A DNA stretch of 64,000 bases from an uncultured Muribaculaceae bacterium (GCA_910586895.1 CAJUIW010000002.1:19837-83836), one strand, 5' to 3'. Numbered from the stretch's first letter, positions 12,823 through 28,500 are shown. Numbers and translations: made by a program. Notes: generated by a model not told the origin, from the sequence alone.

Positions 12823-12829
12823 ATTGGAG

Positions 12830-13150: not shown

Positions 13151-13153
13151 GCC

Positions 13154-14407
13154 ATGAAGAAGTTATTTGTTTATGCCGATTTTGATTGGCTTGATGCTCC
13201 TCGGTTGATTGGAGAATTGTCGTATGACTCGGTAAGGGGTGGCGAGACTTATGGCTTTGCTTTTGATAAAGAATGGCTTGCCAAATATCGTGATATTTTT
13301 CTGTCAGATGATTTGCAGAATTATTCGGGGCTTCAATATACGCGTCCCGGACACGATATTTTCTCGTGCTTTTCAGATGCACTGCCCGACCGTTGGGGGC
13401 GCACACTGTTGAATCGCAGGGAACAAATCACCGCGACAGATGAAAAACGGCCAGTTCGCCGGTTGACTTCATTTGACTATCTTATCGGCATTGATGATGC
13501 TTCACGAATGGGAGGCTTCCGTTTTGCGGAAAATCGAGATGGGAAATTCATAAATTGCGAGGAATCTTTGCGCGTGCCCCCATTGGCAAACGTAAGGGAG
13601 TTGATGCACGCCGCACATGAAATTGAGGCGAGCGAAGAGAAACATATTTTACCGGAGAAGAAATGGATAATACAGCTTCTCCACCCCGGCACGTCTTTAG
13701 GCGGCGCCCGCCCCAAGGCTTCTGTGATTGACGAAGACGGCAGGTTGACCATAGCAAAATTTCCTTCAAGGAAAGATGATTACGATGTAGCTTTGTGGGA
13801 ACATTTCTGTCACGTCATGGCCAAGAAAGCGGGTATAAATGTGGCGGAGACACGGACTATCATGGGTGAGGAATACCACATTCTTCTTTCCAAACGGTTC
13901 GACCGCGACGGGAGTGGGAAGAGAATACATTTTGCCTCAGCGTTAACACTCCTCGGATTGACAGATGGTGACAACGCATCAAATGGGTATGGTTATCCGG
14001 ACATCGTTGACTTCATATTGAGAAATGGGACTGATGTAGAGCAAAATCTCGAAGAGCTTTATCGCCGCGTTGTATTCAACATCATCGTCGGCAACTCTGA
14101 CGACCACTTCCGAAACCACGGTTTTCTGTTGACACGAAAGGGTTGGATTCTTTCTCCGGCATACGACATAAATCCAACCCTCGCCGAAGAACAGAGCTTG
14201 CTCATAAACCGCACTACAAACCTCTCAGACCTGAATATTCTGATGGAATCAGCCGAAGAGTATATGTTGCAGGATGAGAGAGCGAAGTCAATCATAAATG
14301 AAGTCAAAACCGCAATGAACCCATGGCGCACTGTCGCCGGTAAAATCGGCATACCCCAACGCGACATCGAAATGTTTGCGCCAAGGATAGATAAATGGTT
14401 GGAATAA
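13154..14407 (+). CDS. hipA: type II toxin-antitoxin system HipA-family serine/threonine kinase toxin
   Basis: 417 aa. HipA N-terminal coupling region, P-loop-like SLGGARPKASV, catalytic GNSDDHFRNHGFL, PAYDINP. Confidence 0.9.
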   Translation: MKKLFVYADFDWLDAPRLIGELSYDSVRGGETYGFAFDKEWLAKYRDIFLSDDLQNYSGLQYTRPGHDIFSCFSDALPDRWGRTLLNRREQITATDEKRPVRRLTSFDYLIGIDDASRMGGFRFAENRDGKFINCEESLRVPPLANVRELMHAAHEIEASEEKHILPEKKWIIQLLHPGTSLGGARPKASVIDEDGRLTIAKFPSRKDDYDVALWEHFCHVMAKKAGINVAETRTIMGEEYHILLSKRFDRDGSGKRIHFASALTLLGLTDGDNASNGYGYPDIVDFILRNGTDVEQNLEELYRRVVFNIIVGNSDDHFRNHGFLLTRKGWILSPAYDINPTLAEEQSLLINRTTNLSDLNILMESAEEYMLQDERAKSIINEVKTAMNPWRTVAGKIGIPQRDIEMFAPRIDKWLE

Positions 14408-14501: not shown

Positions 14502-15809
14502 TCAGTCGATCTCTTCGTCAGCCTCATAACCACCCATCTCGCGGATGGCGTTCTTGAGCATGGTGTACTGCTTGAAGAGGTGGTTGACGGGCACTTCACC
14601 CTTGGTGTAGTCGTGCATGGGGCTCTTGAGGAAGAAGCTCAGGAAGCGCTGGATGCCGTAGCGGCCGTCGCGAGCGGCGAGGTCGCTGAGAAGAACGAGG
14701 TCAAGGCAGAGGGGAGCTGCGAGGATAGAGTCGCGGCAGAGGAAGTTGATCTTGATCTGCATGGGATAGCCCATCCAGCCGAAGATGTCGATGTTGTCCC
14801 AGCCTTCCTTGTTGTCGTTGCGCGGGGGATAGTAGTTGATACGTACCTTGTGGTAGTAGTTGGTGTAGAGGTCGGGCTGTTCTTCGGGAACCAGGATTGA
14901 TTCAAGTGTTGAGAGCTTTGAAACCTCCTTGGTGCGGAAGTTGGCGGGTTCGTCAAGAACGAGACCGTCACGGTTGCCGAGGATGTTGGTTGAGAACCAT
15001 CCGCTCAGACCGAGGCAGCGTGTGCCGATGATGGGAGCGAAACCTGACTTAACAAGTGTCTGACCTGTCTTGAAGTCCTTACCGGCGATAGGCATGCCAG
15101 TCTTTTCGCTGAGTTCCCACATAGCGGGGATGTCAACGGTGGTGTTGGGAGCACCCATGATGAAAGGAGCGCCTTCCTGAAGAGCTGCGTAAGCGTAGCA
15201 CATTGAGGGAGCAATGTGTTCCTTGTCGTCAGCCTTCATAGCTGCTTCAAGAGCTTCTACTGTGCCGTGGATCTGCTCGTCGACGGGTACGTATACTTCG
15301 GTTGAAGCGGCCCAGAGTACTACTACGCGGTCAAGGCCGTTTTCTTTCTTGAAGTTGCGGATATCCTCGCGGAGCTGTTCAGCCATTTCCCAACGGGTCT
15401 TGCCTACCATGATGTTGTCACCGTCAAGACGCTTTGCATAGTTGTGGTCAAAAGCGGCTTTGAGGGGCTTGATGGCTTCGAGTTCGTCCTTAACGGGGTT
15501 GATGTCCTTTTCCTTAAGAACTTCAGCGTTGATAGCGCTTTCGTAAGCGTTTTCAGGATATACGTCCCATGCGCCGAACACGATGTCGTTGAGGTCAGCG
15601 ATAGGAGCTATTTCGTTATATTTCAGATACTTTTTGTCGGCACCTTTTCCAACACGGATTTTGTCATATTGGGTCATTGAACCAACAGGCTTTGCAAGGC
15701 CTTTGCGGGCCATGAGCACGCCGGTCATGAAAGTGGTAGTTACGGCGCCGAGGCCTACTACAAGAACACCAAGTTTACCTTCTGCAGGTTTAACGTTTGT
15801 TTTGTTCAT
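14502..15809 (-). CDS. ino1: myo-inositol-1-phosphate (inositol-3-phosphate) synthase (MIPS)
   Basis: 435 aa. NAD-binding N-terminus (GVLVVGLGAVTTT) and MIPS signature regions (NILGNRDG, conserved C-terminal tetramerisation/catalytic block). Confidence 0.93.
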   Translation of the reverse strand: MNKTNVKPAEGKLGVLVVGLGAVTTTFMTGVLMARKGLAKPVGSMTQYDKIRVGKGADKKYLKYNEIAPIADLNDIVFGAWDVYPENAYESAINAEVLKEKDINPVKDELEAIKPLKAAFDHNYAKRLDGDNIMVGKTRWEMAEQLREDIRNFKKENGLDRVVVLWAASTEVYVPVDEQIHGTVEALEAAMKADDKEHIAPSMCYAYAALQEGAPFIMGAPNTTVDIPAMWELSEKTGMPIAGKDFKTGQTLVKSGFAPIIGTRCLGLSGWFSTNILGNRDGLVLDEPANFRTKEVSKLSTLESILVPEEQPDLYTNYYHKVRINYYPPRNDNKEGWDNIDIFGWMGYPMQIKINFLCRDSILAAPLCLDLVLLSDLAARDGRYGIQRFLSFFLKSPMHDYTKGEVPVNHLFKQYTMLKNAIREMGGYEADEEID

Positions 15810-16055
15810 GATAATCTTTGGGTTATTGATATTATGTTCTTATTTTCAGTGGCTTTTCCGGTGTATTTCATATGGTGTGACGCCAATGGAACACACATTT
15901 TTGGGAAATGCGTGTAAAAGTACATGTAATTTTTGAAATGCAAAATTATTTCTAATTTAATATTCGCTTATTTTTGCTAAAATATATCAAAAATATGTGT
16001 GAATAGTAAATTTAGGTTAATTTTAGTCGATTTTAATTATTTATGTGTTAACGCA

Positions 16056-16763
16056 TCAAAATGCTACGTCAAGCAGTTCGGCCAGATTTTTAATTATGGA
16101 CGGGTGCATGACGCTGTCTTCATCCTCAGTCCATCCTTTTCCTTTGAGCCATGCTGTGCGGCAGCCTATGGTTTCGGCCGGGATAATATCCTTTTTATAG
16201 CTGTCGCCTACCACGAGCACATTTTCAGGCTTCATGCCGAGAGCCTCCACCCCAAGGCGGAAAATCTGCGGGTCAGGTTTTCTGACGCCCACCACCGCAC
16301 TCTCTATTATGGCCTTGAAGTAGCGCCGCAGGTCAAAGTCAGTGAGTACCGCCTCCACATTGCCGTAGAAGTTTGACACGAGCACCATAGGGTAGCGTTC
16401 GGAAAGTTGTTCGAGTACCGGACGTGCCTCTTCTATGCAGCATCGCGCTCGGTCATAGCAGTAGTCGGCCACCGGGCCGGCGAATTTTGCAGCAGCTTCT
16501 TCCGGTATGATTCTCTGTTCAACAAGCCGGCCAAACTCAATGCGCATCTTTATCACCAGAAGGTCATGGAAGTTATGGTGGGGAAGTATATGGCGTGTGC
16601 GGGCCAGCTCGCGCTCAGCGTAGACGTATGCCTCGCGGAATTGCTCCTTGTCCACCGGCACGCCGCATGACTGATAGCCGTCCCATATTACTTCGCTCCA
16701 GTGCACGCCACGGCTGTCGATTGTGCCGCCGTAGTCAAATATGATACCGGTTATTTTCTCCAT
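16056..16763 (-). CDS. HAD-superfamily hydrolase (subfamily IA-like)
   Basis: Motif I IIFDYGGTID, motif II VSNF, motif III K (VRKPDP), motif IV VVGDSYKKDI. The motif-I +2 position is Gly rather than Asp. Confidence 0.8.
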   Translation of the reverse strand: MEKITGIIFDYGGTIDSRGVHWSEVIWDGYQSCGVPVDKEQFREAYVYAERELARTRHILPHHNFHDLLVIKMRIEFGRLVEQRIIPEEAAAKFAGPVADYCYDRARCCIEEARPVLEQLSERYPMVLVSNFYGNVEAVLTDFDLRRYFKAIIESAVVGVRKPDPQIFRLGVEALGMKPENVLVVGDSYKKDIIPAETIGCRTAWLKGKGWTEDEDSVMHPSIIKNLAELLDVAF

Positions 16764-16802
16764 GGTGATATGAATGTTTTTCGTGGTTGGTATATCTGTA
16801 GT

Positions 16803-17771
16803 TCAGAATTTTCCCTCCTTAAGCTCGGCGGTAAGGTCACGGCATAAACTTTCATGCCGGCTCACCATGTAGAGCAGCAGTATATTGAGCACTGTCAGCT
16901 CGAAGGCGAAGTAAAGCCATGGCATCTGAAGGAACAGGGATGCAAACAGGGCTATGGTGCGCCAGTTGAAAGAGAGGATATTGGTATATTTCATCAGCGG
17001 CAGACTCTTGCGGCGGAACGCATCGCGGAAGCTCTGCGGTATGTTGCCGTCAGGAAAACGGCGGCGCAGTTCGGCACGCAGTGTCTGCATGCTGCGTGAG
17101 AACACCTCCTGATTGGCTGTGTAGTTGGCGTATACTTTGAGAGTTATCTTGCGCCAGAAGTTGCCTCGCCATGGTATCTCACGGTTGCGTGCCCGCAGTT
17201 CGTCGCATGTGTCAAGCTCACTCCCCTCCTTGCCTTTGAGGAAGTAGAGATGAAACTGGCGGTAGTAATCGGCCATTGCAGCCTGCTTGGCATGGCATAT
17301 ACCGGTTATGACGGCCATGACCCATATGGCCCATTTGTGGGCTTCGAAGAATTCGGAGGTATGCACTTCGCGCAGACATATGGCTACATAGATGGTGGCA
17401 AACCATATATCGCCGCTTAGTCCGTCAAGTATGCGGCCTATGCGGGAGTATTGGTGAGTCATGCGCGCAAGCTGTCCGTCGGCGCTGTCAAATGAATTGG
17501 CCCATATCAGGAGCAGCATGCCTGCTATATTGATAAGCATGTTGTCGAAATAGAATGCTACTCCGGCACCGATGCCCAGGAATATCGATGCTATGGTTAT
17601 GGCATTGGGCGTCACGCCGAGTTTTTTGGCCAGACAGGCCCAGAACCAACCTATACGGCGGTAGAATATCAGGTCGATACCCTCTTCCGTATCAAGCGTT
17701 TTCAGCGACTGCTGGTAAGCATCCGAGGCTGATGTTGTATGGTTTATGTCGGGTTCTTCTTGTTTCATCAA
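16803..17771 (-). CDS. CDP-alcohol phosphatidyltransferase family protein (second copy in locus)
   Basis: 322 aa polytopic protein with DSADGQLAR-x8-GRILDGLSGD. This is the CDP-alcohol transferase signature with the last Asp displaced by one residue. Confidence 0.8.
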   Translation of the reverse strand: MMKQEEPDINHTTSASDAYQQSLKTLDTEEGIDLIFYRRIGWFWACLAKKLGVTPNAITIASIFLGIGAGVAFYFDNMLINIAGMLLLIWANSFDSADGQLARMTHQYSRIGRILDGLSGDIWFATIYVAICLREVHTSEFFEAHKWAIWVMAVITGICHAKQAAMADYYRQFHLYFLKGKEGSELDTCDELRARNREIPWRGNFWRKITLKVYANYTANQEVFSRSMQTLRAELRRRFPDGNIPQSFRDAFRRKSLPLMKYTNILSFNWRTIALFASLFLQMPWLYFAFELTVLNILLLYMVSRHESLCRDLTAELKEGKF

Positions 17772-18622
17772 TGGTACATTTCACGGAGTGCGTATGTTCG
17801 TTCGCGCAGGAATTGACCCAGCTCTTCGGGAGATGCGCTGTGTGCGGCCTGCTCCTCTACGGATATGGGCTGCCCAACGCTGACGTGTATCTCTTTGCCC
17901 ACTTTGCGCCACACCTCGGCGGGCAGGCGCAGTGAACGTCCCGGCCAGAAGGCATGTCCGAGGAAGTTGAACCACCAGCTGTTGCTGCCATGGAAGAATA
18001 TCGGTATCACAGGTACCTTGGCACGCTGTATTATCTGCAGGATGGTAGGCTGCCATTCGCGGTCAACGAGGCGGCCGCGCCAGTTTGTCTTGCTCATGGC
18101 TCCGGCGGGGAAAAATCCTACAGGCTCGCCGTTCTTGAGCATACGGATGGCCTGACGGATGCCGTTGACCGATACCTGACGCTTCTTCGGGTCCTGACTT
18201 GACCATGCATCCACAGCTATGAAGTTGGGGCGCATGGCGGTAATCTGGTTCAGAATCATATTGACCATCACGCGGAATTCCGGCCGGCGTGAGGCTATCA
18301 GGTGTATCAGTGTTATGCCGTCCAAAGCGCCGAACGGATGATTGCTGACGGTGATGAAAGCACCTTCAGGCAGGTGGTCGAGCACATCCTGTCCGTCAAT
18401 GCGGAGCTTGATATGGAATTCCTCGAAGAGAAGGCGGCGCACGAATTCCGGTCCGGGAGTGTCGCAGCATTTGGCATGAACAGCGTTGACTTTGTCAACG
18501 GAGAGGAAATGCAGAAGCCAGTTGACGAGCTTTTCGTGGCCGTCAAGTTTCGGGACCATCCGGCGTATATCATCATAGTTGAGTACGTCGGGGCGTATTT
18601 CGTTGTTTTGATCTTCAGCCAT
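17768..18622 (-). CDS. lysophospholipid acyltransferase (LPLAT/PlsC-like) family protein
   Basis: NHPFGALDG (H..D catalytic block), VGFFPAGAMS block. ATGA-type overlaps on both sides. Confidence 0.8.
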   Translation of the reverse strand: MAEDQNNEIRPDVLNYDDIRRMVPKLDGHEKLVNWLLHFLSVDKVNAVHAKCCDTPGPEFVRRLLFEEFHIKLRIDGQDVLDHLPEGAFITVSNHPFGALDGITLIHLIASRRPEFRVMVNMILNQITAMRPNFIAVDAWSSQDPKKRQVSVNGIRQAIRMLKNGEPVGFFPAGAMSKTNWRGRLVDREWQPTILQIIQRAKVPVIPIFFHGSNSWWFNFLGHAFWPGRSLRLPAEVWRKVGKEIHVSVGQPISVEEQAAHSASPEELGQFLRERTYALREMYH

Positions 18623-19565
18623 TTATATAATCGGTATATTTGTTTACGAATCGGTTGAATCCGGGTATCCGCATAAGCAGGTACTCAAATAAGGCATACC
18701 CTGTCAGGGCACATGCTATGCCGAGGAGCACATCTATTATATAGTGGTGCGATGTGTATACGGCAGTCAGCCATATACCCACGGTGATCACTGCAAGGGC
18801 TGTGATCCATGCGGCTCCGGTTCGGTAGCGCACGGCATAGAGCAGTGCTACAAGGGTGTAGGCCGAGTGGAGCGAGGGCACGGCGGCGAATATGTTGGAA
18901 TTGCGGGCGTACAGGCCGTCAAATACGTTCCAGCCTGTGATCTGCCCGAATGCAGCCAGGCCTGCCACCTCACCTTTGGTGCCGGGAATGGCCTCGAATC
19001 CATGTCCGGCCACATACCATGGTGGTGCCGCCGGATGAATATAGTAGCCGGCAAATCCTATCAGATTGACCAGCAGGAATACTATAGCGAAATGCAGATA
19101 TTCATTCCGCCTGCCCTTGAAATAGAGCCAGAGCCCGAATAATATCGGCACCGGAACCCAGCATAGGTAGAACACTCCGGCCAAGAAATCGGCTGCGGCA
19201 AAGGTATGGTGGGCAAAGAACTCGTTAGGTGTCAGCAGCCCCCACTGCTCCGTGTTGATTCCGAACAGGGCTTTCTCGGTATTGTAGAGACCTATGGTGT
19301 CAACCGGATTGACCGTATAGTTGGGGCACAGGTTCATCCAGTCATATGATATGCCGAAAAGAAAGAATGGTACCAGAGCCACGGTAAGCCTACGGGTGAC
19401 GCCCGAGGAGAAGAAGAGGGCCAGGATAAGCAGTGCCATGAACGTATGTTCAGGGCGGAAGCCTATGAACAGGGCTGTGACAACAAGCCATACCGCTAAT
19501 GCACCAACGCAGAGCAGGCTCTCACGCAGTGTGGCCCGGGTGGGTTGATGTTCTGTCATGTTCAT
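18615..19565 (-). CDS. PAP2-superfamily membrane protein, inositol-phosphoceramide-synthase-like
   Basis: 316 aa polytopic protein. PAP2 C2/C3-like motifs VPSLHSAY and YTSHHYIIDVLLG (AUR1/IPC-synthase-type H-H-x2-D). It is adjacent to the PIP synthase. Confidence 0.7.
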   Translation of the reverse strand: MNMTEHQPTRATLRESLLCVGALAVWLVVTALFIGFRPEHTFMALLILALFFSSGVTRRLTVALVPFFLFGISYDWMNLCPNYTVNPVDTIGLYNTEKALFGINTEQWGLLTPNEFFAHHTFAAADFLAGVFYLCWVPVPILFGLWLYFKGRRNEYLHFAIVFLLVNLIGFAGYYIHPAAPPWYVAGHGFEAIPGTKGEVAGLAAFGQITGWNVFDGLYARNSNIFAAVPSLHSAYTLVALLYAVRYRTGAAWITALAVITVGIWLTAVYTSHHYIIDVLLGIACALTGYALFEYLLMRIPGFNRFVNKYTDYING

Positions 19566-20254
19566 TTATTGCTGGCCTTGAGTATGCGTTTGCTGTAGTT
19601 TACGCGGGCAAATGCGGTGATGTTGGCGAACACGGCTATGAATCCCATGGCCACCATCAGTATCATGGCCGGGTCAAACTCCGCTCCGCACTGGCCTGTG
19701 ATACCGGTGGCAAGAGTGGCTATCGAGGTGATCACCACACGCTCCGGACGCTGCAGGAACCCGATTTTGCACTCTATGCCGAGACCTTCGGCACGGGCGC
19801 GCACATAGCTTACCATGATGCTGCCCACCAGCGCCAGGAATGTGACCAAGGCGCCAATGATGTGATCTGTCTGTATCAGGTAATATGATATGGCTCCGAG
19901 TGTGGCGAGCTCGCAGTAGCGGTCGAGCACGGAATCGTACATAGCTCCGAAAGTAGAGGCCATGTTGCCGAGGCGTGCCACCTGTCCGTCAAGCATGTCA
20001 AACAGAGAAAAGCCTATTATAAGCGCTCCACCCCATGTGAGCAGGCTCCAGTCAATGGTGCCGCTTATGCTGGCGTCGTAGCCGGCCCAGATAATTATTG
20101 CGGCGGCAGCCAGATTGCCTAACAGTCCTATGGTGGTGACTATGTTAGGGGTTATCTTCATTTTTATCAGAAGCCGTACAAAGGGATTGATCACGCAGTA
20201 GATGCCCTGCTGGAGGGAACCGCGGGTCTGAACAGCCGATTCTTTAATTTTCAT
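19562..20254 (-). CDS. CDP-diacylglycerol--inositol-3-phosphate 3-phosphatidyltransferase (PIP synthase) candidate
   Basis: Perfect CDP-alcohol signature DMLDGQVAR-x8-G-x3-D-x3-D. The start is trimmed to the ATG at 20254 (MKIKES..). Confidence 0.8.
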   Translation of the reverse strand: MKIKESAVQTRGSLQQGIYCVINPFVRLLIKMKITPNIVTTIGLLGNLAAAAIIIWAGYDASISGTIDWSLLTWGGALIIGFSLFDMLDGQVARLGNMASTFGAMYDSVLDRYCELATLGAISYYLIQTDHIIGALVTFLALVGSIMVSYVRARAEGLGIECKIGFLQRPERVVITSIATLATGITGQCGAEFDPAMILMVAMGFIAVFANITAFARVNYSKRILKASNK

Positions 20255-20801
20255 CTCTCTTATGTTTGTAAGTGAAAAGATTAACAAAGTTGATTGCCAC
20301 CTTGTCAAAGCGGGTGACGCTGTACACAAAGTAGCGCTGGAGCACGAAGTTCCAGAACCATGATACAAGCAGTGACACTATCAGACGGGCGGCGGCAAAG
20401 TAGCCGTCAGGACGGAAGCCTATTGTCTCGAGCCAGTGCCAGTTGTTGAGGATATGGTATAGCGCCTGTGTGCCGAACGAGTTGAGCAGAAGGCTTCCTA
20501 CCCATACCATGGCATATTTTACCGCCACGGCTTTCCAGGGGCAGTCCTTGGCATGGAATGTGAAGCGGTAGTTGATGATGCAGTTTATCACTCCGCCGAG
20601 CAGTGCTCCTATGGCTGTGGATAGCCATGGTGTGAGGCCCACCCATGCGAAGAGTGCGAATGCAGTAAAGAGGTCTGCCCACGATGCTGTCTGCGAGGAT
20701 ACGGCTGAGCGGAGAAACGAATAGATAAGTTTATCGCTCTTGATAATATCGGTTCCTACTTTCTTTATTTTATCCATATCACAGGCAGAAATAGTTGACA
20801 A
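20244..20801 (-). CDS. GtrA-like family membrane protein
   Basis: About 4 TM segments. Typical GtrA-like pattern (GGVINCIINYRFTFH .. WNFVLQRYFVY). The start is uncertain (20801 or 20777). Confidence 0.7.
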   Translation of the reverse strand: MSTISACDMDKIKKVGTDIIKSDKLIYSFLRSAVSSQTASWADLFTAFALFAWVGLTPWLSTAIGALLGGVINCIINYRFTFHAKDCPWKAVAVKYAMVWVGSLLLNSFGTQALYHILNNWHWLETIGFRPDGYFAAARLIVSLLVSWFWNFVLQRYFVYSVTRFDKVAINFVNLFTYKHKRDEN

Positions 20802-21297
20802 TAAGCAGTATCACCACGGAGTAGATGCCGGCCAATATGTCATCGGCCATCATTCCGTAGCCTCCGGGGAAGCGCTCCATGCTGCGGATGCCAAACGGTT
20901 TGTATATATCGAAGAATCTGAACAGCACGAGCGACAGCAGAATCTCCCACCATGGAGTGACGGCAATGCCTGACAGCGGCAGGAGCGATATCCACTGCCC
21001 TACCGTTTCGTCGGCGCACGCTATCACCGGATCCTTGCCCCAGTATTTTTCCGACTCTGAGCTTGCCCAGGTTCCGGCCACGGTGTAGACGGCGGCTGCG
21101 GTAAGCGTCACCCAGAATATCAGCGGCTGGCTTGCCCAGAAATAGAGCGGAAGCCACAGCAGTATGGCAAGCAGAGCTCCCCATGTGCCGGGTGCCACCG
21201 GAAGATACCCCACACCGAACGATGTGGCCAGCAGTCGTGGCAGCAGCGGGAACGGCTTGTCAGTTATAGGGACCGGACGTCGCGACTTGATTTTCAT
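20779..21297 (-). CDS. pgpA: PgpA-family phosphatidylglycerophosphatase A-like (candidate PIP phosphatase)
   Basis: FGVGYLPVAPGTWGAL .. FDIYKPFGIRSMERFPGGYGMMADDILAG: canonical PgpA motifs. Confidence 0.85.
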   Translation of the reverse strand: MKIKSRRPVPITDKPFPLLPRLLATSFGVGYLPVAPGTWGALLAILLWLPLYFWASQPLIFWVTLTAAAVYTVAGTWASSESEKYWGKDPVIACADETVGQWISLLPLSGIAVTPWWEILLSLVLFRFFDIYKPFGIRSMERFPGGYGMMADDILAGIYSVVILLIVNYFCL

Positions 21298-22169
21298 TAC
21301 TTCTTCTCGTTATGTTCCTTTATCAGGGTCATTATGCGCTTGGCTATGTGCGGGGCTGCCTCTACACGGCAAGGTGCGAAGCTGGGCCAGTCATTGAAGT
21401 CAATGATCTGTATCTCGCCTGTTTCCGATACGATACAGTCGCCTCCGTAGATTATGATATCCACTTCATCGGCGGCTTTCTGGCACATCTTCTTCAGGCT
21501 GTCAAGGTCAAAATGAAAGCCTGTGGAGTGACCGTTTATGCGCTCCATGCCGTATTTTGACTGTCCGTTGTCAAAGGGGTAGAACCAGTAGAAAAACTGT
21601 GTTCCGCGCACACCGTAGAATTTGATCAGGTCGCCCGGCAGATGGCGGTTAATTACGGCTCGCTTTATCCCGCGCATGAAATACTCCTGAAGCACCTCCT
21701 GAGCTTCTTCGGGGTGGCGGGCATAGCTCACATCCTCCTTGTGCATGGCGTGGCTGTCGCCGCGCTTTATCCAGCAGTTGGTGAAGCGTGCGTTGATCAG
21801 TTTGTCGCGCACTACCTCGTCAGTGTTTACCACGAGGCTTTCCGGATAGGGTATGCCTGAACCTACAAGTATGCGTGTCATGCGTTCGCGGGTGCAGTTC
21901 TCTATGCCGTAGCCTGAGTTGATTACCAGGGCGCCGGCATCCTCCAGTTGCTGGAGCTTGTCGATAGAGCCCTGCTCACGGCACATGTTGACTATGATAT
22001 TCTCCTGTACTTTTCCGGCCATCAGCTGCTCTTCACTGTAGACAGTCACCTGAGCTCCGCGTTTGCGCAGCTGCTCGGCCACTAAATTGAAAATGGCGGC
22101 GTCGTTGCCGATATGGTTAGGTGAATATGCGCCGGCACGCATTACGCCGGCTATGTTTATCTCAGCCAT
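21297..22169 (-). CDS. ATP-grasp-fold enzyme of unknown substrate
   Basis: C-terminal ATP-grasp Mg/ATP block (IIIYGGDCIVSETGEIQIIDFNDWPSF) and a central CWIKRGDSHAMHKEDV strand-loop. No specific family was recognised. Confidence 0.6.
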   Translation of the reverse strand: MAEINIAGVMRAGAYSPNHIGNDAAIFNLVAEQLRKRGAQVTVYSEEQLMAGKVQENIIVNMCREQGSIDKLQQLEDAGALVINSGYGIENCTRERMTRILVGSGIPYPESLVVNTDEVVRDKLINARFTNCWIKRGDSHAMHKEDVSYARHPEEAQEVLQEYFMRGIKRAVINRHLPGDLIKFYGVRGTQFFYWFYPFDNGQSKYGMERINGHSTGFHFDLDSLKKMCQKAADEVDIIIYGGDCIVSETGEIQIIDFNDWPSFAPCRVEAAPHIAKRIMTLIKEHNEKK

Positions 22170-22881
22170 TTGATTCGTTGGTTAAAAGCCTGTTGGCTGT
22201 TTCTATATCATGTTGGTGATCCACATCGATGATTTTGCCCATGGGCCATGCGCGCAGGTTGAGTCCGCATGCCACAAGACGGCGCTGGAAATTGCGCATG
22301 CGGCTTATCCCCTCTTCCATGCAGCGGTCAAGCACTTCCGTGGCCTTTGGCGACAGTGCGTATATGCCGCCTGAAATGTACTTGGTCGACGCGTCGGGTG
22401 CATCAAGGAATGCGGTTATGCGGTCATTTGCATCAGTGTCCACATACAGGGGCTTTTCATCGTCAATGAATGTGGTTACGGCCATATATCCGTCGGAAGT
22501 GGTATCGGCCTCGAATGCAGCTATGAATTCCCTGAAGCGGGCGGGGTGGAAAATGGTGTCGACTGTGGTGAGGCAGAAGCGCTCCCCTTTCGGCAGGATG
22601 CGGGTAAGCTCATGGAAGCTGTGCATGGAGCTTGGGGTTGACTTCACGCAGAGGCGCAGCTCCACAGGGAGTGTGGGGGCAAGCTCTTCGAGGTATCTTC
22701 TCACTTCGGTCATCTGCTCGTTGACAATGACGCTTATGGTCGTGGCATTGCAGCTGATGAATATATCTATCAGCCGCTTTATCATAGGCTTGCCGTCGAT
22801 TTCCACAAGCGGTTTCGGCAGACTCACACCCTCCTGCTGCAGCCGGGAGCCTTCACCGGCAGCTATAATGCCGTAGTTCAT
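22162..22881 (-). CDS. NTP-transferase (sugar/alcohol-phosphate nucleotidylyltransferase) family protein
   Basis: N-terminal GIIAAGEGSRL .. PKPLVEIDGKPMI signature of nucleotidylyltransferases (IPCT/LicC-like). Confidence 0.8.
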   Translation of the reverse strand: MNYGIIAAGEGSRLQQEGVSLPKPLVEIDGKPMIKRLIDIFISCNATTISVIVNEQMTEVRRYLEELAPTLPVELRLCVKSTPSSMHSFHELTRILPKGERFCLTTVDTIFHPARFREFIAAFEADTTSDGYMAVTTFIDDEKPLYVDTDANDRITAFLDAPDASTKYISGGIYALSPKATEVLDRCMEEGISRMRNFQRRLVACGLNLRAWPMGKIIDVDHQHDIETANRLLTNESNG

Positions 22882-23987
22882 TGGTCGGAATCGGTTTCGT
22901 TGAGGTTAAGCACCACATTGTCATTCTTGCTCTTTTCGTAATACTGCTTGCGGAGCGGATTGCGATGGGCCGAGCGGTGGCGGCGGCGGTTGCGCAGAAT
23001 GTCGATTGCTGAATATATGGCCTGACGCATTGATTCGGCATCGGCTACTCCTTTTCCGGCTATGTCAAATGCAGTGCCGTGGTCAGGCGAGGTGCGCACG
23101 TAGTCAAGTCCGGCAGTGAAGTTGACCCCTTCGTTCATGGCAAGGGCCTTGAAAGGGGCAAGCCCCTGGTCGTGGTACATGGCCAGAACGCCGTCAAACT
23201 TGTTGAACAGCCCGTTGCCGAAGAATCCGTCGGCCGCATACGGACCGAAACAGTTGATTTTCTTCTCACGTGCTTTCTCTATTGCCGGTGTTATGATTTC
23301 TTTCTCTTCGCTGCCGAGCAGTCCCTCCTCACCGGCATGCGGATTGAGTGCCAGAACGGCTATACGGGGGTGCGGAAGAGCAAAGTCCTTTTCCAGCGAC
23401 TCGGCAAGGCTCTCAATCTTGGCAAGAATTCCATCGGTAGTGAGCATCGACGGTACACGTGCTATGGGTACATGCGTTGTGGCGAGGGCCACGCGCATAT
23501 TGTCGGAGCATAGTATCATCAGCGCATGATCATTGCCGTTGTCGGAGAGAGATGCCTCGAGGTACTCGGTGTGGCCGGGGAAAGTGAAACGGTCGCTCTG
23601 TATGGTGTGCTTGTCAATCGGGGCTGTCACCAGCAGGTCGATATTACCTTGGCGCAGGTCGGCCACGGCACGTTCAAGAGCGCAGAAAGCAGCTTCGCCG
23701 GCGGCACGTGATGCCACCCCGGGCTCCACTTTCACATCCTCGCCCACTACGTTGATTATGTTGTATTCACCTATGCGCGCGTCAGCACCCGAGTTGACCT
23801 GGTTGAGGGGGAACTGTGCTATGCCGAGGTTCTTGCGGTAAAAAGCCGCTATTTTTGCCGAGCCGTAGATTATTGGGGTGCACAGCTCAAGTATGCGGTT
23901 GTCTTCTAATGCTTTAAGGATTACTTCGTAGCCTATTCCGTTGATATCGCCCTGAGTTATCCCTACTTTTATGCGGTTGTCTGCCAT
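22878..23987 (-). CDS. pdxA: 4-hydroxythreonine-4-phosphate dehydrogenase
   Basis: 369 aa. GDINGIGYEV, TTHVPI, HGTAFDIAGKGVA motifs. Confidence 0.93.
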   Translation of the reverse strand: MADNRIKVGITQGDINGIGYEVILKALEDNRILELCTPIIYGSAKIAAFYRKNLGIAQFPLNQVNSGADARIGEYNIINVVGEDVKVEPGVASRAAGEAAFCALERAVADLRQGNIDLLVTAPIDKHTIQSDRFTFPGHTEYLEASLSDNGNDHALMILCSDNMRVALATTHVPIARVPSMLTTDGILAKIESLAESLEKDFALPHPRIAVLALNPHAGEEGLLGSEEKEIITPAIEKAREKKINCFGPYAADGFFGNGLFNKFDGVLAMYHDQGLAPFKALAMNEGVNFTAGLDYVRTSPDHGTAFDIAGKGVADAESMRQAIYSAIDILRNRRRHRSAHRNPLRKQYYEKSKNDNVVLNLNETDSDQ

Positions 23988-24044: not shown

Positions 24045-24989
24045 TCAGCATTCCACCAATTTTTCCTCTATGAGGCGGATGGCATTGCGGCGCAGTCCGT
24101 CGAGCTTGGCGCGCTTCATCGGGCTGCGGCGGAATAGGCGGGTGTACTCCTCGGTGTCCATTGACATGATCTGTTGGGCCGATATGTCAAGCAGTGCCGG
24201 GCGCGGAGTGAATTCCGGTAGAGTGGTGTATGCCGGATGTGAGTTGTGGGGACACACTTCCGAGCAGCGGTCGCATCCGTAGAGACATCCTTGTAGCCGG
24301 GGTTCCGACGGTAGCGGTCCGCGGTGTTCTATGGTGAGGTATGACAGACAGCGGCGTGCGTCAAACGGATGGGAGGATGACAATGCTCCTCCGGGGCATG
24401 CCTCAATGCAACGCCGGCATGAGCCGCATGGGTTACCCGGCAGGGGAGAGGTAGGGGTGAAGCGTACCGTGGTCAGAATCTCTGCAAGAAAACAGTATGT
24501 ACCGGCTCCGGGAACGATTATCTGACCGGAACGTCCCTGACGTCCTACACCTGCGCGTATGGCCCAGTAGCGTTCATGGATAGGTGCCGTATCTACACAT
24601 ATGCGTGTCGCTCCTCCGGAGCGCTTCTCAATGGCTTCGGCCACTGCTTTCAAGCGCTTGCGAACCACGTCGTGATAGTCATCGCCCAAGGCATATGAGG
24701 CTATGCGTGCCGCCGGGTTTATTCTCCGGCTGTCAGGGTGACGGTAGGGGATGGCTATGCTGATTACGGAGCTTGTGCCGTCAAGCAGAAGCCGCGGGTC
24801 GGCTCTCAGCTCCTCGTGGCGGTCAAGGTAGTCCATGTCGGCGTGGTAGCCTTCGGCTATCCATCGGAGATAGGCGGAGTGGACCGCTTCATCCACAGGT
24901 ACGGCATCGGCTACTCCCCACCGTATGGCTCCGGCTTCGTTGAGAAGTTGCTGAAATTCAATGTCAGCGGGGAATGGTATGGAATTCAT
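24045..24989 (-). CDS. queG: tRNA epoxyqueuosine(34) reductase
   Basis: 314 aa. 4Fe-4S ferredoxin motifs CGSCRRCIEACP and CDRCSEVCP, with QueG-like N-terminal and HEAT-like C-terminal regions. Confidence 0.9.
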   Translation of the reverse strand: MNSIPFPADIEFQQLLNEAGAIRWGVADAVPVDEAVHSAYLRWIAEGYHADMDYLDRHEELRADPRLLLDGTSSVISIAIPYRHPDSRRINPAARIASYALGDDYHDVVRKRLKAVAEAIEKRSGGATRICVDTAPIHERYWAIRAGVGRQGRSGQIIVPGAGTYCFLAEILTTVRFTPTSPLPGNPCGSCRRCIEACPGGALSSSHPFDARRCLSYLTIEHRGPLPSEPRLQGCLYGCDRCSEVCPHNSHPAYTTLPEFTPRPALLDISAQQIMSMDTEEYTRLFRRSPMKRAKLDGLRRNAIRLIEEKLVEC

Positions 24990-25581
24990 AGCCGTTTTGC
25001 AGAAGCCATTCTATGGCACGCGGCAATGCGTAGCGCAGGTTACGTTCAGCTTTCAGGGAGTCGTGAAATACTATGATGGAGCCGTTGCGCACATAGTGTT
25101 TCACATTGCGCAGCACCTGTTCCGGCGTCAGTTTGCGGGAGTAGTCGCGTGTCACGAGGTCATACATCACTATGTTGTAGTGATTCTTGATGGCCTTGGC
25201 CTGTGCCCAGCGGATAAGTCCGTGGGGCGGACGGAACAGTGAGCTGTCAATCAGCGCATCGGCTTCAGTGATGTCGCGCATGTAGCGCACGGTTGACACC
25301 AGGCGTCCCTGCATGTGGTGCATGGTGTGGTTGCCGTAGCTGTGTCCGCGGCGGCGCACCTCTTCAAGCAGTTCGGGGTGGCGGCGTACATTGTCGCCCA
25401 CCATGAAGAATGTGGCTTTCACGCCGTAGCGGTCAAGCATGTCAAGAACCCACGGCGTCACTTCCGGAATGGGGCCGTCGTCGAAGGTCAGATATATCGC
25501 TTTCCGGCCGCGCTGTTTTATGCGCCATATTGCCTCGGGGAAGAGGAGCCGGTAAGCGAGTGGGGGCTGCTCAATCAGCAT
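24964..25581 (-). CDS. polysaccharide deacetylase (NodB homology domain) family protein
   Basis: LTFDDGP, HSYGNHTMHH, RPPHG motifs. Confidence 0.85.
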   Translation of the reverse strand: MLIEQPPLAYRLLFPEAIWRIKQRGRKAIYLTFDDGPIPEVTPWVLDMLDRYGVKATFFMVGDNVRRHPELLEEVRRRGHSYGNHTMHHMQGRLVSTVRYMRDITEADALIDSSLFRPPHGLIRWAQAKAIKNHYNIVMYDLVTRDYSRKLTPEQVLRNVKHYVRNGSIIVFHDSLKAERNLRYALPRAIEWLLQNGYEFHTIPR

Positions 25582-28500
25582 TACTGCTTCTTGGTGGCAG
25601 CCTCGTAGAGGCTTTGTGAGCGTTCGATGTTCACACCCTTGGCCTGTATCTCCTCAAGGAGCTTGGCAGTGTCGCCACCGTCATTATGATATGTCTGTAT
25701 CATATCCATGAAGAAGTAGGTGTCAATGGCATGATCCGTGCGGGTCAGTGTGGCGTAGAGGCGGGGCGACAGGCTCTGGTAGTACTTGACATTGTCGGCA
25801 TATCGCAGTACCTCGTTGCGCAGTATCTCAAGGCCTTTCTCGGAAGCTTTCTTGTCGTTGGTGGCGACACCGATGCGGCAGTAGAGGTCGCCTGTGTCCT
25901 GCCCTACTGAAAGTGAGAGCGGCATTGCCTCAACAGGAAGCTTGGTAAGCATAAGGTCGAGTACCTCACGGGCTTTCTTGAAGCGGTCAGCCGCATAGTC
26001 GGCCGACGACGAATCGCGTGCGGCGATACCTTCGTTGAACAGAGCTGTGGCAAGGTCGAGCATTGCGCTGCGGTGGGTCACTACCATACGGCGCACGGTT
26101 TCATCAAGATATATCTGACCAGGTGCGGTGACTTTGTCAAGTCCTCCCCAGCGGAAGCGTTCGGTCATGTTGCGGTACATCTTGTCGGTGTTGACCGAGG
26201 GATAGCCCGAAGCGTTGAGTTTCGGAGTCACTTCATAGGTCAGACCTGTGTTGTGCATGTAGGGGCTGAGGCCTATGTAGTATTCATCCGGAACAGTTAT
26301 AGCGAAGTAAACCGGACGGTTCCAGCCGTTCTTGGCTGAAGATGCGAGCATGTCAAGTGCCAGGATGCTGCTCAGGCGGAGTCCGCGCTGTGCCATAACT
26401 CTATCATCGGCCAGCAGATTGAGGTCCATCGTGTCGGATGTCATGGCGGCATCCTCGGCGGTGATACGGCCGCTCTTCACTGCCTGCTGGAGATTGACAG
26501 GTATGTACATGTTGGGCTTCTGCACCAGGGGTGCGCCGAATATATGGTTGTTCTTGCCGGAATAGATCTCGGCAAGGCTCTCAAGCACGCTTGTGCGTGA
26601 GCTGTCCGGCTCGAAGAAGTAGGCGAACTGGAGGCGGTCATATGCATAGTCCGAAGGCTTGGCAAGCATATCTATGCCAGGAGCTTCATAAGAGGGCCGG
26701 CGCACCTGATCGGCATACCAGTCGGTGGTCAGATAGCTGAGGTTGACCACCTTGACATCTGTGCGAGTGCCTTCAACCTCCTGTGCATACCAGAGAGGGA
26801 ATGTGTCGTTGTCACCGTTGGTGAACACTATGGCGTTTTCGTCAAGGCTGTTCAGGTAGTTCTGTCCGAAGTCACGTGCGGTGTATCGTCCTGAGCGGTC
26901 ATGGTCGTCCCATGTCTGCGATACCACCTGCAGCGGAACCAGGATGCCTATGATAGCGGCTACTACAGCTCCTATGGCCGACATGCGGCGGCTGCGGGGT
27001 GTGGACGGTTCTTCGCTTGTGGCGTTGGTTGCGGTTGTCTTGCTCTTCTGCTTGGTGGCAGCCACGAACAGGCGCCACAGGCCAGCGACGCCCATACCTA
27101 CCCATATGGCATAGGCATAGAACGAACCTGCAAATGCGTAGTCACGTTCGCGCGGCTGGGTGGGAGTCTGGTTGAGGTAGAGCACAATGGCTATACCGGT
27201 CATGAAGAAGAGGAAGAATATTACCCAGAATTGCTCGATGCCGCGCTTTGAGGTGAATGCCTGCCAGAGGAGGCCTATGATACCGAGCAGAAGCGGGAGC
27301 ATGAAGAAAACGTTGTGGCCGGCGTTGCCTTTGCCCATTTCGTCAGGCAGAAGGCTCTGGTCGCCCAGTCGGGGATTGTCGATGAACGGAATGCCTGATA
27401 TCCAGTTGCCGTGGTTCACTTCACCATTGCCCTGGATGTCGTTCTGACGTCCGGCGAAGTTCCACATGAAGTAGCGCCAGTACATATGGTTGAGCTGATA
27501 AGTCACCAGATATGTAAGGTTCTCGGCCATAGTGGGCTTGATGCGTGTGGTGCGCTGGTAGACGTTGCCGTCGGGTGTCACATATTGGGTGGCTTCCACA
27601 GGCTTGCCGCGTAGTCCGCCTATCCATCCGGAATAGTCGGCGGCATGTGCGCTGGAATAGATGCGGGGGAACACCATGTTCAGCTCCGGCATCATTTCAT
27701 ACTCCTTTTTGTAGCCGGTGTTGATATACTTGTCGGGTTCTGACTCAGACTCTTTCACCTGACGGGCGTAGAGGGCGTGCCCTTCATGGACCACAGGTGT
27801 GGTAGTGCCGTCGGAACCAACTTCGTAGACAGGTGATGAGTTGAACGTTTCGCCGTAGAACAGCGGACGGTCGCCGTACTGCTCGCGGTTGAGGTATGAA
27901 CTGAGTGCGAATACATTGTCAGGGGCATTCTGATTCATCGGGGTGTGGGCGCTTGAGCGGATGAGCAGAAGCGCGTAGGATGAATAGCCGGCAAATATCA
28001 CCAGTATGCTGATGGCCACAAGGTTCAGTATACGTATCGGGAGCTTCTTGGCCATGAAGAGCCATGCTCCGAGTGCGGCCATGATAAGCAGCGGTATAAG
28101 CAGGTTGTCGCCGATGAAGGGTATGCCTGACAGCAGTACGCTGAGCAGGAATGACACGCGGATTGCAGTGACATTGCGCTGTGCATAGAGTGAGTGGATG
28201 CACCATATCAACGAGGCTACAAGCAGTGTGGCATAGATCAGTACGCCCACGTTGAATGACATGCCTAATACGTTGACACAGAACAGTTCGAAATACTGAG
28301 ACACCTCAATGAATCCGGGCACCAGTCCGTAAAGAATAAGTCCTACAATGACGAATGACACCAGCAGGGCTATCAGTGAGCCTTTGGCTGTGGTATTTTT
28401 CCATTTCTTGTAGTAGATGACCAGAACTATGGCCGGAATACAGAGCAGGTTGAGCAGGTGCACCGCGATTGAGATGCCTATGATGTAGGCTATGAATATC

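Follow-up and report, generated by a model that had tools for sequence, protein, structure and literature searches.

Can one locus hold two routes to inositol lipids? We asked this of a 64,000-nucleotide stretch of DNA (the window) from a mouse-gut metagenome Muribaculaceae bacterium, in which an earlier note had proposed that a PIP-intermediate route and a CDP-inositol-type route share one operon. We found both gene sets in one chain of overlapping genes, while the chemistry of the second route stays a prediction. Taken as a whole, we believe that the locus is best explained as a composite of a first route, assigned by orthology, and a predicted CDP-inositol route, and we consider this explanation probable.

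Architecture of the locus

The minus strand from 14502 to 23987 carries a run of 11 intact overlapping genes. Their order is pdxA, NTP-transferase, ATP-grasp, PgpA-like, GtrA-like, PIP synthase, PI-DHC synthase (phosphoinositol-dihydroceramide synthase), acyltransferase, a second CDP-alcohol transferase that we call PT2, HAD and MIPS (myo-inositol-phosphate synthase); all features described below are on this strand. The first gene, pdxA (22878–23987), encodes 4-hydroxythreonine-4-phosphate dehydrogenase (TIGR00557, 369.9 bits against a cut-off of 290), and its adjacency to the NTP-transferase gene is common to most loci of other Bacteroidales families.

By ORF coordinates, the junctions overlap by 4 nt (pdxA/NTP-transferase), 8 nt (NTP-transferase/ATP-grasp), 1 nt (ATP-grasp/PgpA), 11 nt (GtrA/PIP synthase), 4 nt (PIP synthase/PI-DHC synthase), 8 nt (PI-DHC synthase/acyltransferase) and 1–4 nt (acyltransferase/PT2), and a gap of 39 nt lies between PT2 and HAD. 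These overlaps and short gaps support a putative single transcription unit. The cassette that resembles the B. thetaiotaomicron cluster (BT-like cassette) has the ATP-grasp gene on one side and PT2 on the other, and all of the genes read as one chain.

The BT_1526-like MIPS gene (14502–15809; PF07994 343.2 bits, PF01658 104.3 bits) comes last, as it does 3' of the cluster in most related loci. It is set apart from HAD by an AT-rich spacer of 246 bp (15810–16055), which likely serves MIPS as its own promoter, and the enzyme would supply inositol phosphate for both routes. Judged by its genes, the window holds a candidate composite inositol-lipid locus, with the gene sets of both published Bacteroidota routes in one chain.

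The BT-like cassette

The cassette resembles the B. thetaiotaomicron cluster BT_1522–BT_1526 (Heaver et al. 2022, PMC9246714) in that its order of PgpA, GtrA, PIP synthase and PI-DHC synthase is that of BT_1525 to BT_1522, with MIPS nearby. The PgpA-like phosphatase (20779–21297; PF04608, 135.6 bits) has the position of BT_1525, the PIP-DAG phosphatase, and is its counterpart. The GtrA-like membrane protein (20244–20801; PF04138, 44.3 bits) corresponds to BT_1524, which gave no lipid phenotype in B. thetaiotaomicron (PMC9246714). The PI-DHC synthase (18615–19565), a BT_1522-like protein of the PAP2/AUR1 type (PF14378), matches the NCBIfam model NF052609 over its full length with 486.6 bits, above the cut-off of 480.

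The putative BT_1523-like PIP synthase, a CDP-diacylglycerol:inositol-phosphate transferase (19562–20254; PF01066, E 1e-11), is one of the two CDP-alcohol phosphatidyltransferases that the earlier note had named; both are there, 1.8 kb apart, the other being PT2. As that note had said, its motif (D-ML-DG-QV-AR-x8-G-AMY-D-SVL-D) fits the signature D-x2-DG-x2-AR-x8-G-x3-D-x3-D exactly. Its best NCBIfam match is NF052561 (PIPSynBT1523) at 270.6 bits, and it differs from BT_1523 equivalogs in scoring under their cut-off of 350. The PIPSynth and AIP synthase models score 127.5 and 125.8; AIP and PIP synthases are users of CDP-lipid donors.

There are further differences from the B. thetaiotaomicron cluster. 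The block in the window is embedded within the cluster of the other route, PT2 and HAD stand between it and MIPS, and it is preceded by an ATP-grasp gene that has no counterpart in the description of BT_1521–BT_1527 by Heaver et al. (PMC9246714). The block also carries an additional acyltransferase (17768–18622; PF19576, 92.1 bits) of the OlsF N-terminal or GlsA-like kind, with scores on NF052615 (133 bits) and NF053697 (121.6 bits) that are both under cut-off. This gene accompanies the cassette in the window's genus, yet elsewhere it adjoins PT2 where there is no cassette, in the architectures AGrasp-AcT-PT2 and AGrasp-GtrA-AcT-PT2 (AGrasp, ATP-grasp; AcT, acyltransferase).

By orthology to the characterised B. 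thetaiotaomicron proteins, MIPS would make inositol phosphate, the BT_1523-like synthase would combine it with CDP-diacylglycerol, yielding PIP-DAG, the PgpA-like phosphatase would turn PIP-DAG into PI-DAG, and the PAP2/AUR1-like enzyme would transfer phosphoinositol onto dihydroceramide.

The NTP-transferase and PT2 module

The earlier note had treated the second route as a pair of enzymes. Our reading is instead that it is a module of NTP-transferase, ATP-grasp, PT2 and often HAD, because natural fusions link all four: NTP-PT2 (P0128), NTP-ATPgrasp-PT2 (P0131, 818 aa, with full-length members of its cluster on several contigs), ATP-grasp-PT2 (P0125, P0132, P0141 and P0148) and PT2-HAD (P0135 and P0136). 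The module resembles the putative alternative cluster of B. vulgatus and Prevotella (Heaver et al. 2022: an NTP-transferase, a CDP-alcohol phosphatidyltransferase and a HAD hydrolase close to MIPS), having homologous NTP, PT2 and HAD genes in a conserved order beside MIPS. Our link to the B. vulgatus-type cluster runs through two loci and not through the BVU sequences themselves. The window's NTP-transferase, PT2 and HAD are 54, 50 and 50% identical to those of the syntenic locus of Phocaeicola coprophilus DSM 18228 (L100) and 50, 58 and 34% identical to those of B. ihuae (L126), and in both loci the order NTP, ATP-grasp, PT2, HAD is kept. The genomes of P. coprophilus DSM 18228 and B. ihuae have strong matches to the B. 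vulgatus Ptrans, HAD and NTP proteins in Table S5 of Heaver et al. (PMC9246714). The alternative cluster as published has three genes, to which our survey adds a conserved fourth, ATP-grasp, between NTP and PT2. Unlike the published description, some lineages have ATP-grasp fused to NTP or PT2, part of Muribaculaceae can dispense with HAD, and in the window the BT-like cassette splits the module.

PT2 (16803–17771; PF01066, 48.4 bits, E 1.8e-12) probably starts at the ATG at 17768, giving 321 aa as in a 98%-identical database protein (P0004). Its motif is D-SA-DG-QL-AR-x8-G-RIL-D-GLSG-D, with the last Asp one residue late (D-x4-D), just as the earlier note had described. The fourth Asp has been put forward as the catalytic base in the CDP-alcohol transferase family. 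Across 34 diverse relatives of PT2 it varies: some have it at the canonical place, the Bacteroidales group has it one residue off, and others do not have it. The motif residues D, D, G, A, R, G, R, D and G are either invariant or conserved to 90% or more. The lack of a fixed fourth Asp counts against the chemistry of the second route. There was no NCBIfam match above cut-off for PT2; among curated models it matches AIP synthases (42.9 bits) and PIP synthases (33 bits) best, whose use of CDP-lipid donors also counts against this route, and the IPCT-DIPPS model NF041135 gives 27.1 bits against a cut-off of 580.

The predicted structure of PT2 (pLDDT 95.6) finds its top fold match in the A. fulgidus IPCT-DIPPS 4mnd (Z 16.1, with an rmsd of 2.7 A across 187 residues), and its best PDB sequence match is AF2299 (4o6m; E 1.4e-5). 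PIP synthases follow at Z 14.1 and 13.1, choline phosphotransferases at about 10, and PS and PGP synthases at about 9 (8.7–8.9). DIPPS is the best match in both comparisons, although fold likeness says nothing certain about substrate. The pairing of an NTP-transferase with a CDP-alcohol transferase, and the fusion of the two in some relatives, is shared with the archaeal and Thermotoga IPCT-DIPPS. PT2 differs from IPCT-DIPPS in its varying fourth Asp, a helical insert of roughly 100 residues (~165–265), a longer C-terminus and a predicted acceptor that is a lipid rather than inositol phosphate. The predicted chemistry, CDP-alcohol plus lipid alcohol giving phosphodiester lipid and CMP, is that of the Kennedy-type enzymes CHPT1 and CEPT1, but their fold match is clearly weaker (Z 9.6–10.0) than those of DIPPS and PIP synthases, and there is no sequence family match. 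In the predicted route, PT2 would act as a DIPPS-like membrane transferase that moves phosphoinositol from CDP-inositol onto diacylglycerol or dihydroceramide as the lipid alcohol.

PT2 could also be imagined as the genome's housekeeping PgsA or PssA, given that the genome has only three PF01066 genes and none scores as PgsA. We regard this as extremely improbable. PT2 scores 26.8 bits on TIGR00560 (pgsA, cut-off 109) and 22.6 on TIGR00473 (pssA, cut-off 107), the PGP and PS synthase folds lie far below DIPPS, and PT2 was not found in whole genera of Muribaculaceae. The third PF01066 gene, on contig C13, adjoins psd (phosphatidylserine decarboxylase), which suggests that it is pssA.

The NTP-transferase (22162–22881, 239 aa; PF12804/PF00483) carries the nucleotidylyltransferase signature that had been noted (AAGEGSRL...PKPL, for GxGxRL...K), and in the prediction it would activate inositol phosphate to CDP-inositol. 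No curated NCBIfam model matched it above cut-off. The IPCT half of NF041135 aligns with residues 5–236 at only 30.6 bits (cut-off 580), and generic sugar-1-phosphate nucleotidylyltransferase models score slightly higher, at about 50 bits, which counts against the second route. The earlier note would have counted grouping with sugar-1-phosphate nucleotidylyltransferases, together with a lack of activity on inositol phosphate, against its proposal. Such grouping does not discriminate: IPCT itself falls in these broad nucleotidyltransferase families, and no curated match is above cut-off.

These generic matches also agree with the alternative in that note, a different CDP-activated head group. 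The module would then make a glycerol, ethanolamine, choline, sugar phosphate or similar head group, leaving a single inositol route. PG-DHC has been reported from B. vulgatus and P. copri (Extended Data Fig. 9 legend, PMC9246714), and in sixteen Bacteroidaceae loci (L081–L096) MIPS was not found within 10 kb of the module, which counts against the second route. We consider this alternative the less likely one, and quite improbable, since most Muribaculaceae loci have MIPS directly 3' of the module, many other families have it on a flank, and among solved folds the closest to PT2 is DIPPS, which uses CDP-inositol. Moreover, B. vulgatus and P. veroralis, which have only the alternative cluster with MIPS and no BT_1522/23/25 homologues, produce PI-DHC (PMC9246714). 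Either PT2 or a BT-like synthase is present in 283 of 300 Muribaculaceae genomes, and whole genera have only one, which is the pattern to be expected of alternatives for a single task.

The HAD-family protein (16056–16763; PF00702/PF13419) has the motif I sequence FDYGGT in all Bacteroidales orthologues examined. It lacks the Asp+2 acid/base of phosphatases, and this counts against a clear role in the second route, of which it may be a frequent yet dispensable helper. HAD bears on another explanation, in which PT2 is a second PIP-type synthase. PT2 would join CDP-diacylglycerol (or a CDP-activated ceramide) and inositol phosphate into a phosphorylated intermediate that HAD dephosphorylates, the NTP-transferase would have another task, and both routes would pass through a PIP-like intermediate. 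The PT2-HAD fusions, a weak HAD match (E 5e-5) to PF09419, the family of mitochondrial PGP phosphatases, the AIP and PIP synthases as best curated matches of PT2, and the M. tuberculosis PIP synthase as second-best fold (the Z of 14.1) all speak for it. About a third of the genomes with both routes lack HAD, and there the PgpA phosphatase of the cassette could replace it. Against this, HAD has no Asp+2 general acid, and PT2 occurs with neither HAD nor cassette in AGrasp-AcT-PT2-MIPS loci. The NTP-PT2 and NTP-ATPgrasp-PT2 fusions resemble IPCT-DIPPS, NTP is absent from the same genera as PT2, and the DIPPS fold match is better by 2 Z units with a much lower rmsd. We therefore find a second PIP-type synthase unlikely and prefer the CDP-inositol reading.

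The ATP-grasp protein (21297–22169) had no Pfam match, PF05770 included. Its AlphaFold model (pLDDT 92.6) matches the ATP-grasp fold, with RimK (Z 21.7), ArgX (21.4), Ddl (20.3) and the inositol-phosphate kinase human ITPK1 (20.3) tied. The gene is common to BT-like loci in genomes that have no PT2. We infer that in Muribaculaceae the enzyme would serve both routes, probably by acting on the pool of soluble inositol phosphate that the two share, or on a product common to them.

Distribution across Muribaculaceae and meaning of the coexistence

We surveyed 300 Muribaculaceae genomes and crossed the presence lists by hand. The PI-DHC synthase was present in 90, PT2 in 251, NTP in 244, ATP-grasp in 285 and HAD in 215. 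PT2 alone was found in 193 genomes, the BT-like route alone in 32, and neither in 17. The alternative and BT-like clusters did not occur on an either/or basis, as both are in the window's locus and in 58 of the 300 genomes. In every one of these hybrids whose coordinates were listed, the PI-DHC synthase gene was less than 2 kb from PT2. HAD was absent from 19 of the 58, so some cassette gene may stand in for it, which is compatible with more than one model.

Genus by genus, the presence of the NTP-transferase tracks PT2. In genus g3, NTP, PT2 and HAD were each found in 2 of 17 genomes and ATP-grasp in 16; in g15, the first three were found in none of 11 and ATP-grasp in 10. NTP and PT2 are lost together, and the ATP-grasp gene remains with either route; the loci of g3 and g15 read AGrasp-GtrA-PIPS-PIDHCS (PIP and PI-DHC synthases). 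Among 80 Muribaculaceae loci the commonest order was pdxA-NTP-AGrasp-PT2-HAD-MIPS, and 10 had the cassette. The usual order in Bacteroidales is NTP, ATP-grasp, PT2 and HAD, and cassette genes lay within 10 kb in only one of 80 wider Bacteroidales loci, itself labelled Muribaculaceae.

The cassette is in only 6 of 18 genomes of the window's own genus, and either route has been lost in some related species. One route could thus be a leftover from recent transfer that is now decaying, which would leave the coexistence without functional meaning. We think this very unlikely. The eleven genes are all intact and tightly overlapping, and hybrid loci in other genera show 60–80% protein identity and no stops. 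Nearly all sampled members of two genera retain both routes (PI-DHC synthase in 16 of 16 and PT2 in 15 of 16 genomes of g7; each in 7 of 8 of g21).

For a few Prevotella, supplementary data in print already show both routes together in one genome, and a 2023 review still calls the second route predicted in silico (PMC10191378). We likewise call it a route to inositol lipids as a prediction. Some related species have both routes and others a single one, which suggests overlapping function, and both are stably kept in whole genera, which suggests that the overlap is incomplete. About a fifth of Muribaculaceae species retain the arrangement with both, although in the literature the two routes figure as alternatives.

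Gene chain and surroundings of the locus

The genome that holds the window is 2.47 Mb in size with a completeness of 99.8%. The nearest protein relatives of the locus are labelled Muribaculum or Muribaculaceae, and mouse-gut metagenomes from several studies contain near-identical DNA.

We defined the gene chain from ORF coordinates and family scans, and all of it lies on the minus strand. It runs from pdxA (22878-23987) through an NTP-transferase (22162-22881), an ATP-grasp protein with no Pfam match (21297-22169), a PgpA-like phosphatase (20779-21297), a GtrA-like membrane protein (20244-20801), a PIP synthase (19562-20254), a phosphoinositol-dihydroceramide (PI-DHC) synthase (18615-19565), an OlsF/GlsA-like acyltransferase (17768-18622) and a second CDP-alcohol transferase, which we call PT2 (16803-17771), to a HAD protein (16056-16763). 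An AT-rich spacer of 246 bp then separates the HAD gene from that of myo-inositol-phosphate synthase (MIPS, 14502-15809). Every ORF of the chain is intact. Each adjoining pair from pdxA to PT2 overlaps by 1-23 nt if the longest GtrA ORF is taken, whose TTG start is uncertain, and the gap between PT2 and HAD is 39 nt.

The pdxA gene sits directly upstream of the NTP-transferase gene and overlaps it by 4 nt. It is also directly upstream in most of the loci that we surveyed in Bacteroidaceae, Prevotellaceae, Tannerellaceae and Dysgonomonadaceae (L081-L160), and in genus g15 of the Muribaculaceae it abuts the genes of the B. thetaiotaomicron type rather than the NTP-transferase gene. Further upstream on the same strand, ahead of queG and pdxA, are a 1151-aa TMEM260-like (PF11028) membrane protein and a polysaccharide deacetylase (24964-29036), a block that several Muribaculaceae loci also have ahead of the cluster. 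Between nadB and MIPS (12824-14407) the plus strand encodes an XRE-type HTH protein and, after it, a HipA-family kinase, which together resemble a toxin-antitoxin pair of the hipBA type.

Among the listed sequencing runs containing this stretch, none was recorded as RNA. Four runs guessed to be RNA were compared by contig cover, and in two of these it is flat and looks like DNA. In the other two the cover is concentrated on MIPS (14721-15900) and the remaining genes appear as short low-depth pieces, as would be expected if MIPS had a strong promoter of its own. Genes cannot be ranked from contigs, and this cover therefore says nothing firm about expression.

Two published gene sets and their joint occurrence

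In gut Bacteroidota, inositol lipids and inositol sphingolipids influence capsule expression, resistance to antimicrobial peptides and fitness inside the host (PMC9246714). In B. thetaiotaomicron, Heaver et al. 2022 characterised BT_1522 (PI-DHC synthase), BT_1523 (PIP synthase), BT_1525 (PIP phosphatase) and BT_1526 (MIPS), here called route 1. For B. vulgatus and Prevotella they proposed a putative alternative cluster (here route 2), in which genes for an NTP-transferase, a CDP-alcohol transferase and a HAD hydrolase lie close to MIPS, and PI-DHC is made by species carrying the alternative cluster only (PMC9246714). Each species is described as having "one of two clusters" (PMC9246714), and a 2023 review likewise writes "either ... 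or", with the second route predicted in silico (PMC10191378).

The window holds both sets. Its PgpA, GtrA, PIP synthase and PI-DHC synthase genes are colinear with BT_1525 to BT_1522. The PI-DHC synthase scores 486.6, above the NCBIfam equivalog cut-off of 480, and the best match of the PIP synthase is the BT_1523 model, at 270.6, below the cut-off of 350. The link to the B. vulgatus type runs via two genomes, Phocaeicola coprophilus DSM 18228 (L100) and Bacteroides ihuae (L126), which have very strong matches to the B. vulgatus proteins (Heaver Table S5, PMC9246714). In both, the NTP-transferase, ATP-grasp, PT2 and HAD genes stand in the same order as in the window, and the proteins are about 50% identical to ours, except for the HAD protein of B. 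ihuae at only 34%.

We surveyed one sample of 300 Muribaculaceae genomes, mostly from mouse and other animal gut samples, searching with five proteins and crossing the lists by hand. The ATP-grasp protein was matched in 285 genomes, PT2 in 251, the NTP-transferase in 244, the HAD protein in 215 and the PI-DHC synthase in 90. PI-DHC synthase and PT2 occur together in 58 of the 300 (19%), which we call hybrids; 193 have PT2 only, 32 PI-DHC synthase only and 17 neither. Every hybrid with given coordinates has the two genes on the same contig; they either flank the acyltransferase gene at a distance of about 0.9 kb or adjoin each other directly (genus g7; L164, L165). Among sampled members, the combination is close to fixed in genus g7 (PI-DHC synthase 16/16, PT2 15/16) and genus g21 (7/8 for each), and the window's own genus has the cassette (PgpA, GtrA, PIP synthase, PI-DHC synthase and acyltransferase) in 6 of 18 genomes; these genus counts are descriptive only because the surveyed genomes are related to one another.

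The commonest order across 80 Muribaculaceae loci is pdxA-NTP-ATPgrasp-PT2-HAD-MIPS, and 10 of them share the window's layout, with the cassette placed after the ATP-grasp gene and ahead of PT2. Among 80 loci from the wider Bacteroidales, cassette genes lie within 10 kb in a single one (L129), which is labelled Muribaculaceae. Single-locus hybrids are thus found almost only in Muribaculaceae-labelled records, a statement that rests on these 160 loci. In a quick PT2 tree labelled by architecture the hybrids need six changes, and the starred branches are compatible with a single origin; hybrid rows branch off early within the Muribaculaceae clade, with weak support.

Our search for literature after 2022 on the alternative route, or on Muribaculaceae inositol lipids, gave nothing beyond Heaver et al. 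2022 and the 2023 review. Both gene sets are already published, and co-occurrence at the genome level is already in Table S5 for a few Prevotella: P. buccalis, P. timonensis and P. brevis strongly match both sets and are not discussed in the text (PMC9246714). Relative to the literature searched, what is new is the joining of both sets in one apparent operon, how often and how stably Muribaculaceae carry it, a fourth conserved gene (ATP-grasp) with its natural fusions, and the pattern of joint and separate gene losses.

Composition of the predicted second route

In 79 loci from Bacteroidaceae, Prevotellaceae, Tannerellaceae and Dysgonomonadaceae the genes stand almost without exception in the order NTP, ATP-grasp, PT2, HAD, often with pdxA in front and MIPS flanking; the ATP-grasp gene is therefore missing from the published description with three genes. 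Many of the Bacteroidaceae and Prevotellaceae loci have a stretch of about 1 kb between PT2 and HAD, which in P. coprophilus (L100:10945-11952) encodes an LPG-synthase-TM (flippase-like) protein.

A PT2 search against 1.8 billion representative proteins, whose matches then went through domain scans and BLAST, revealed natural fusions. One protein of 818 aa joins NTP, ATP-grasp and PT2 (P0131), with full-length cluster members on several contigs, and four representatives join ATP-grasp and PT2. An NTP-PT2 fusion (P0128) has the same architecture as archaeal IPCT-DIPPS. PT2 is fused to HAD in P0135 and P0136 and to an LPG-synthase-TM (flippase-like, BT_1521-type) domain in P0161 and P0162, and NTP and ATP-grasp form a single ORF in L142 and L144. 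On gene order and fusions, the predicted route 2 is a module of four genes: NTP, ATP-grasp, PT2 and HAD.

The earlier note had read an exact CDP-alcohol transferase signature in the PIP synthase, a last Asp one residue late in PT2 and GxGxRL...K in the NTP-transferase, and the sequence bears out all three. We aligned 34 PT2 relatives of wide diversity (A1; it was too diverse for the locus scan, which used a smaller alignment, A2). Across A1 the opening part of the signature, together with an additional GR..DG, is either invariant or at least 90% conserved. The fourth Asp varies: some relatives have it in the canonical place, the Bacteroidales group has it shifted and others lack it. The shift is therefore a family trait and not a lesion.

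No curated NCBIfam model matched PT2 above its cut-off. The best scores, all far below, were 42.9 bits for AIP synthase, 33 for PIP synthase and 27 each for IPCT-DIPPS and PgsA, and the best PDB sequence match was the DIPPS-like AF2299 (E 1.4e-5). We compared the PT2 model (pLDDT 95.6) with 48,161 chains. A. fulgidus IPCT-DIPPS ranked ahead (Z 16.1, rmsd 2.7 A over 187 residues) of the PIP synthases of M. tuberculosis (Z 14.1, 4.4 A, 190 residues) and R. salmoninarum (Z 13.1, 4.8 A, 218 residues), followed by choline phosphotransferases (Z 10.0 and 9.6, 4.2 and 4.0 A, 193 and 205 residues), PS synthase (Z 8.9, 4.6 A, 152 residues) and PGP synthase (Z 8.7, 5.8 A, 162 residues). This ranking of a modelled fold favours CDP-inositol as the PT2 donor, short of proof. 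The genome has three PF01066 genes, two in the locus and one, probably pssA, on contig C13 (17727-18224, L161) beside a phosphatidylserine decarboxylase gene; the PF01066 family model did not find a PgsA-type gene in the genome.

The ATP-grasp model (pLDDT 92.6) has the classic fold, and RimK, ArgX/LysX, Ddl and human ITPK1 tie in the fold search at Z 20-22. With ITPK1 level with peptide and amino-acid ligases, kinase and ligase are indistinguishable for this protein. In the HAD protein FDYGGT replaces DxDxT in every orthologue inspected, so it is without the usual general acid of HAD phosphatases.

Gene losses and proposed working

The NTP-transferase and PT2 are missing from the same genera (2/17 each in g3, 0/11 each in g15). 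HAD shows the same genus pattern and is also absent from about 36 further PT2-positive genomes; it is absent from 19 of the 58 hybrids (about a third) versus about 17 of the 193 PT2-only genomes (about a tenth). In genera g6 and g20 the hybrids are those without HAD, and HAD and the cassette are mutually exclusive. The ATP-grasp gene is present in the PT2-less genera (16/17 in g3, 10/11 in g15), where the loci read ATPgrasp-GtrA-PIPS-PIDHCS (PIP and PI-DHC synthases), then MIPS or pdxA. Where unrelated genes stand upstream, as in several loci, an NTP-transferase gene without an ATP-grasp neighbour is on another contig (for example in genomes G296, G177 and G286). From the genus-wise pattern we read the NTP-transferase and PT2 as one putative functional unit, the HAD protein as an apparent accessory whose role some cassette gene may take over, and the ATP-grasp protein as a predicted part of Muribaculaceae inositol-lipid synthesis generally, not of one route.

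Next to PT2, the acyltransferase gene comes together with the full cassette, with GtrA as its only companion, or by itself. The clade that has it by itself carries neither HAD nor an adjacent NTP gene. Two further ideas were rejected. Reliance of g15, whose locus is without MIPS, on inositol salvage via ATP-grasp fails because MIPS is encoded elsewhere in 5 of 5 genomes tested, and genomes with route 1 only are not short of a PgpA phosphatase, which they encode elsewhere.

By orthology, route 1 would follow the B. thetaiotaomicron scheme. In route 2 the NTP-transferase most likely makes CDP-inositol, and PT2 would then pass phosphoinositol to diacylglycerol or dihydroceramide; we infer this from the architecture of the fusions, the joint loss of NTP and PT2, the fold, and PI-DHC in species with the alternative cluster only. 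Some lineages have lost the first route and others the second, suggesting that either can stand in for the other. Both are also stably kept in small (2-4 Mb) genomes, which suggests that they are not fully equivalent, and their joint retention over long evolutionary periods in Muribaculaceae argues against simple redundancy.

One specific form of non-redundancy, which we think unlikely as a whole, has PT2 making a diastereomeric head-group linkage or loading dihydroceramide directly, with ATP-grasp as a new step on the inositol-phosphate pool. By known stereochemistry, the phosphate of CDP-inositol built from the 1L-inositol-1-phosphate that MIPS supplies sits enantiotopic to the position that canonical PI uses. 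Route 1 would then make canonical PI-DAG and PI-DHC, and the PT2 lipid could possibly be attached at the enantiotopic position, a difference that ordinary mass spectrometry would miss; in the other version, dihydroceramide would receive phosphoinositol straight from PT2. If such non-redundancy were true, the ATP-grasp protein, common to both routes, would represent a step of inositol-lipid synthesis in bacteria that had so far gone unrecognised. The gene is absent from the published three-gene model, fused to the transferase in some bacteria, and kept even where the alternative route is lost.

The field describes the two gene clusters as alternatives, the second of them predicted, and Muribaculaceae can hold both. 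Natural presence/absence variants inside single genera make the roles of PT2, HAD and ATP-grasp directly testable by comparative lipidomics.
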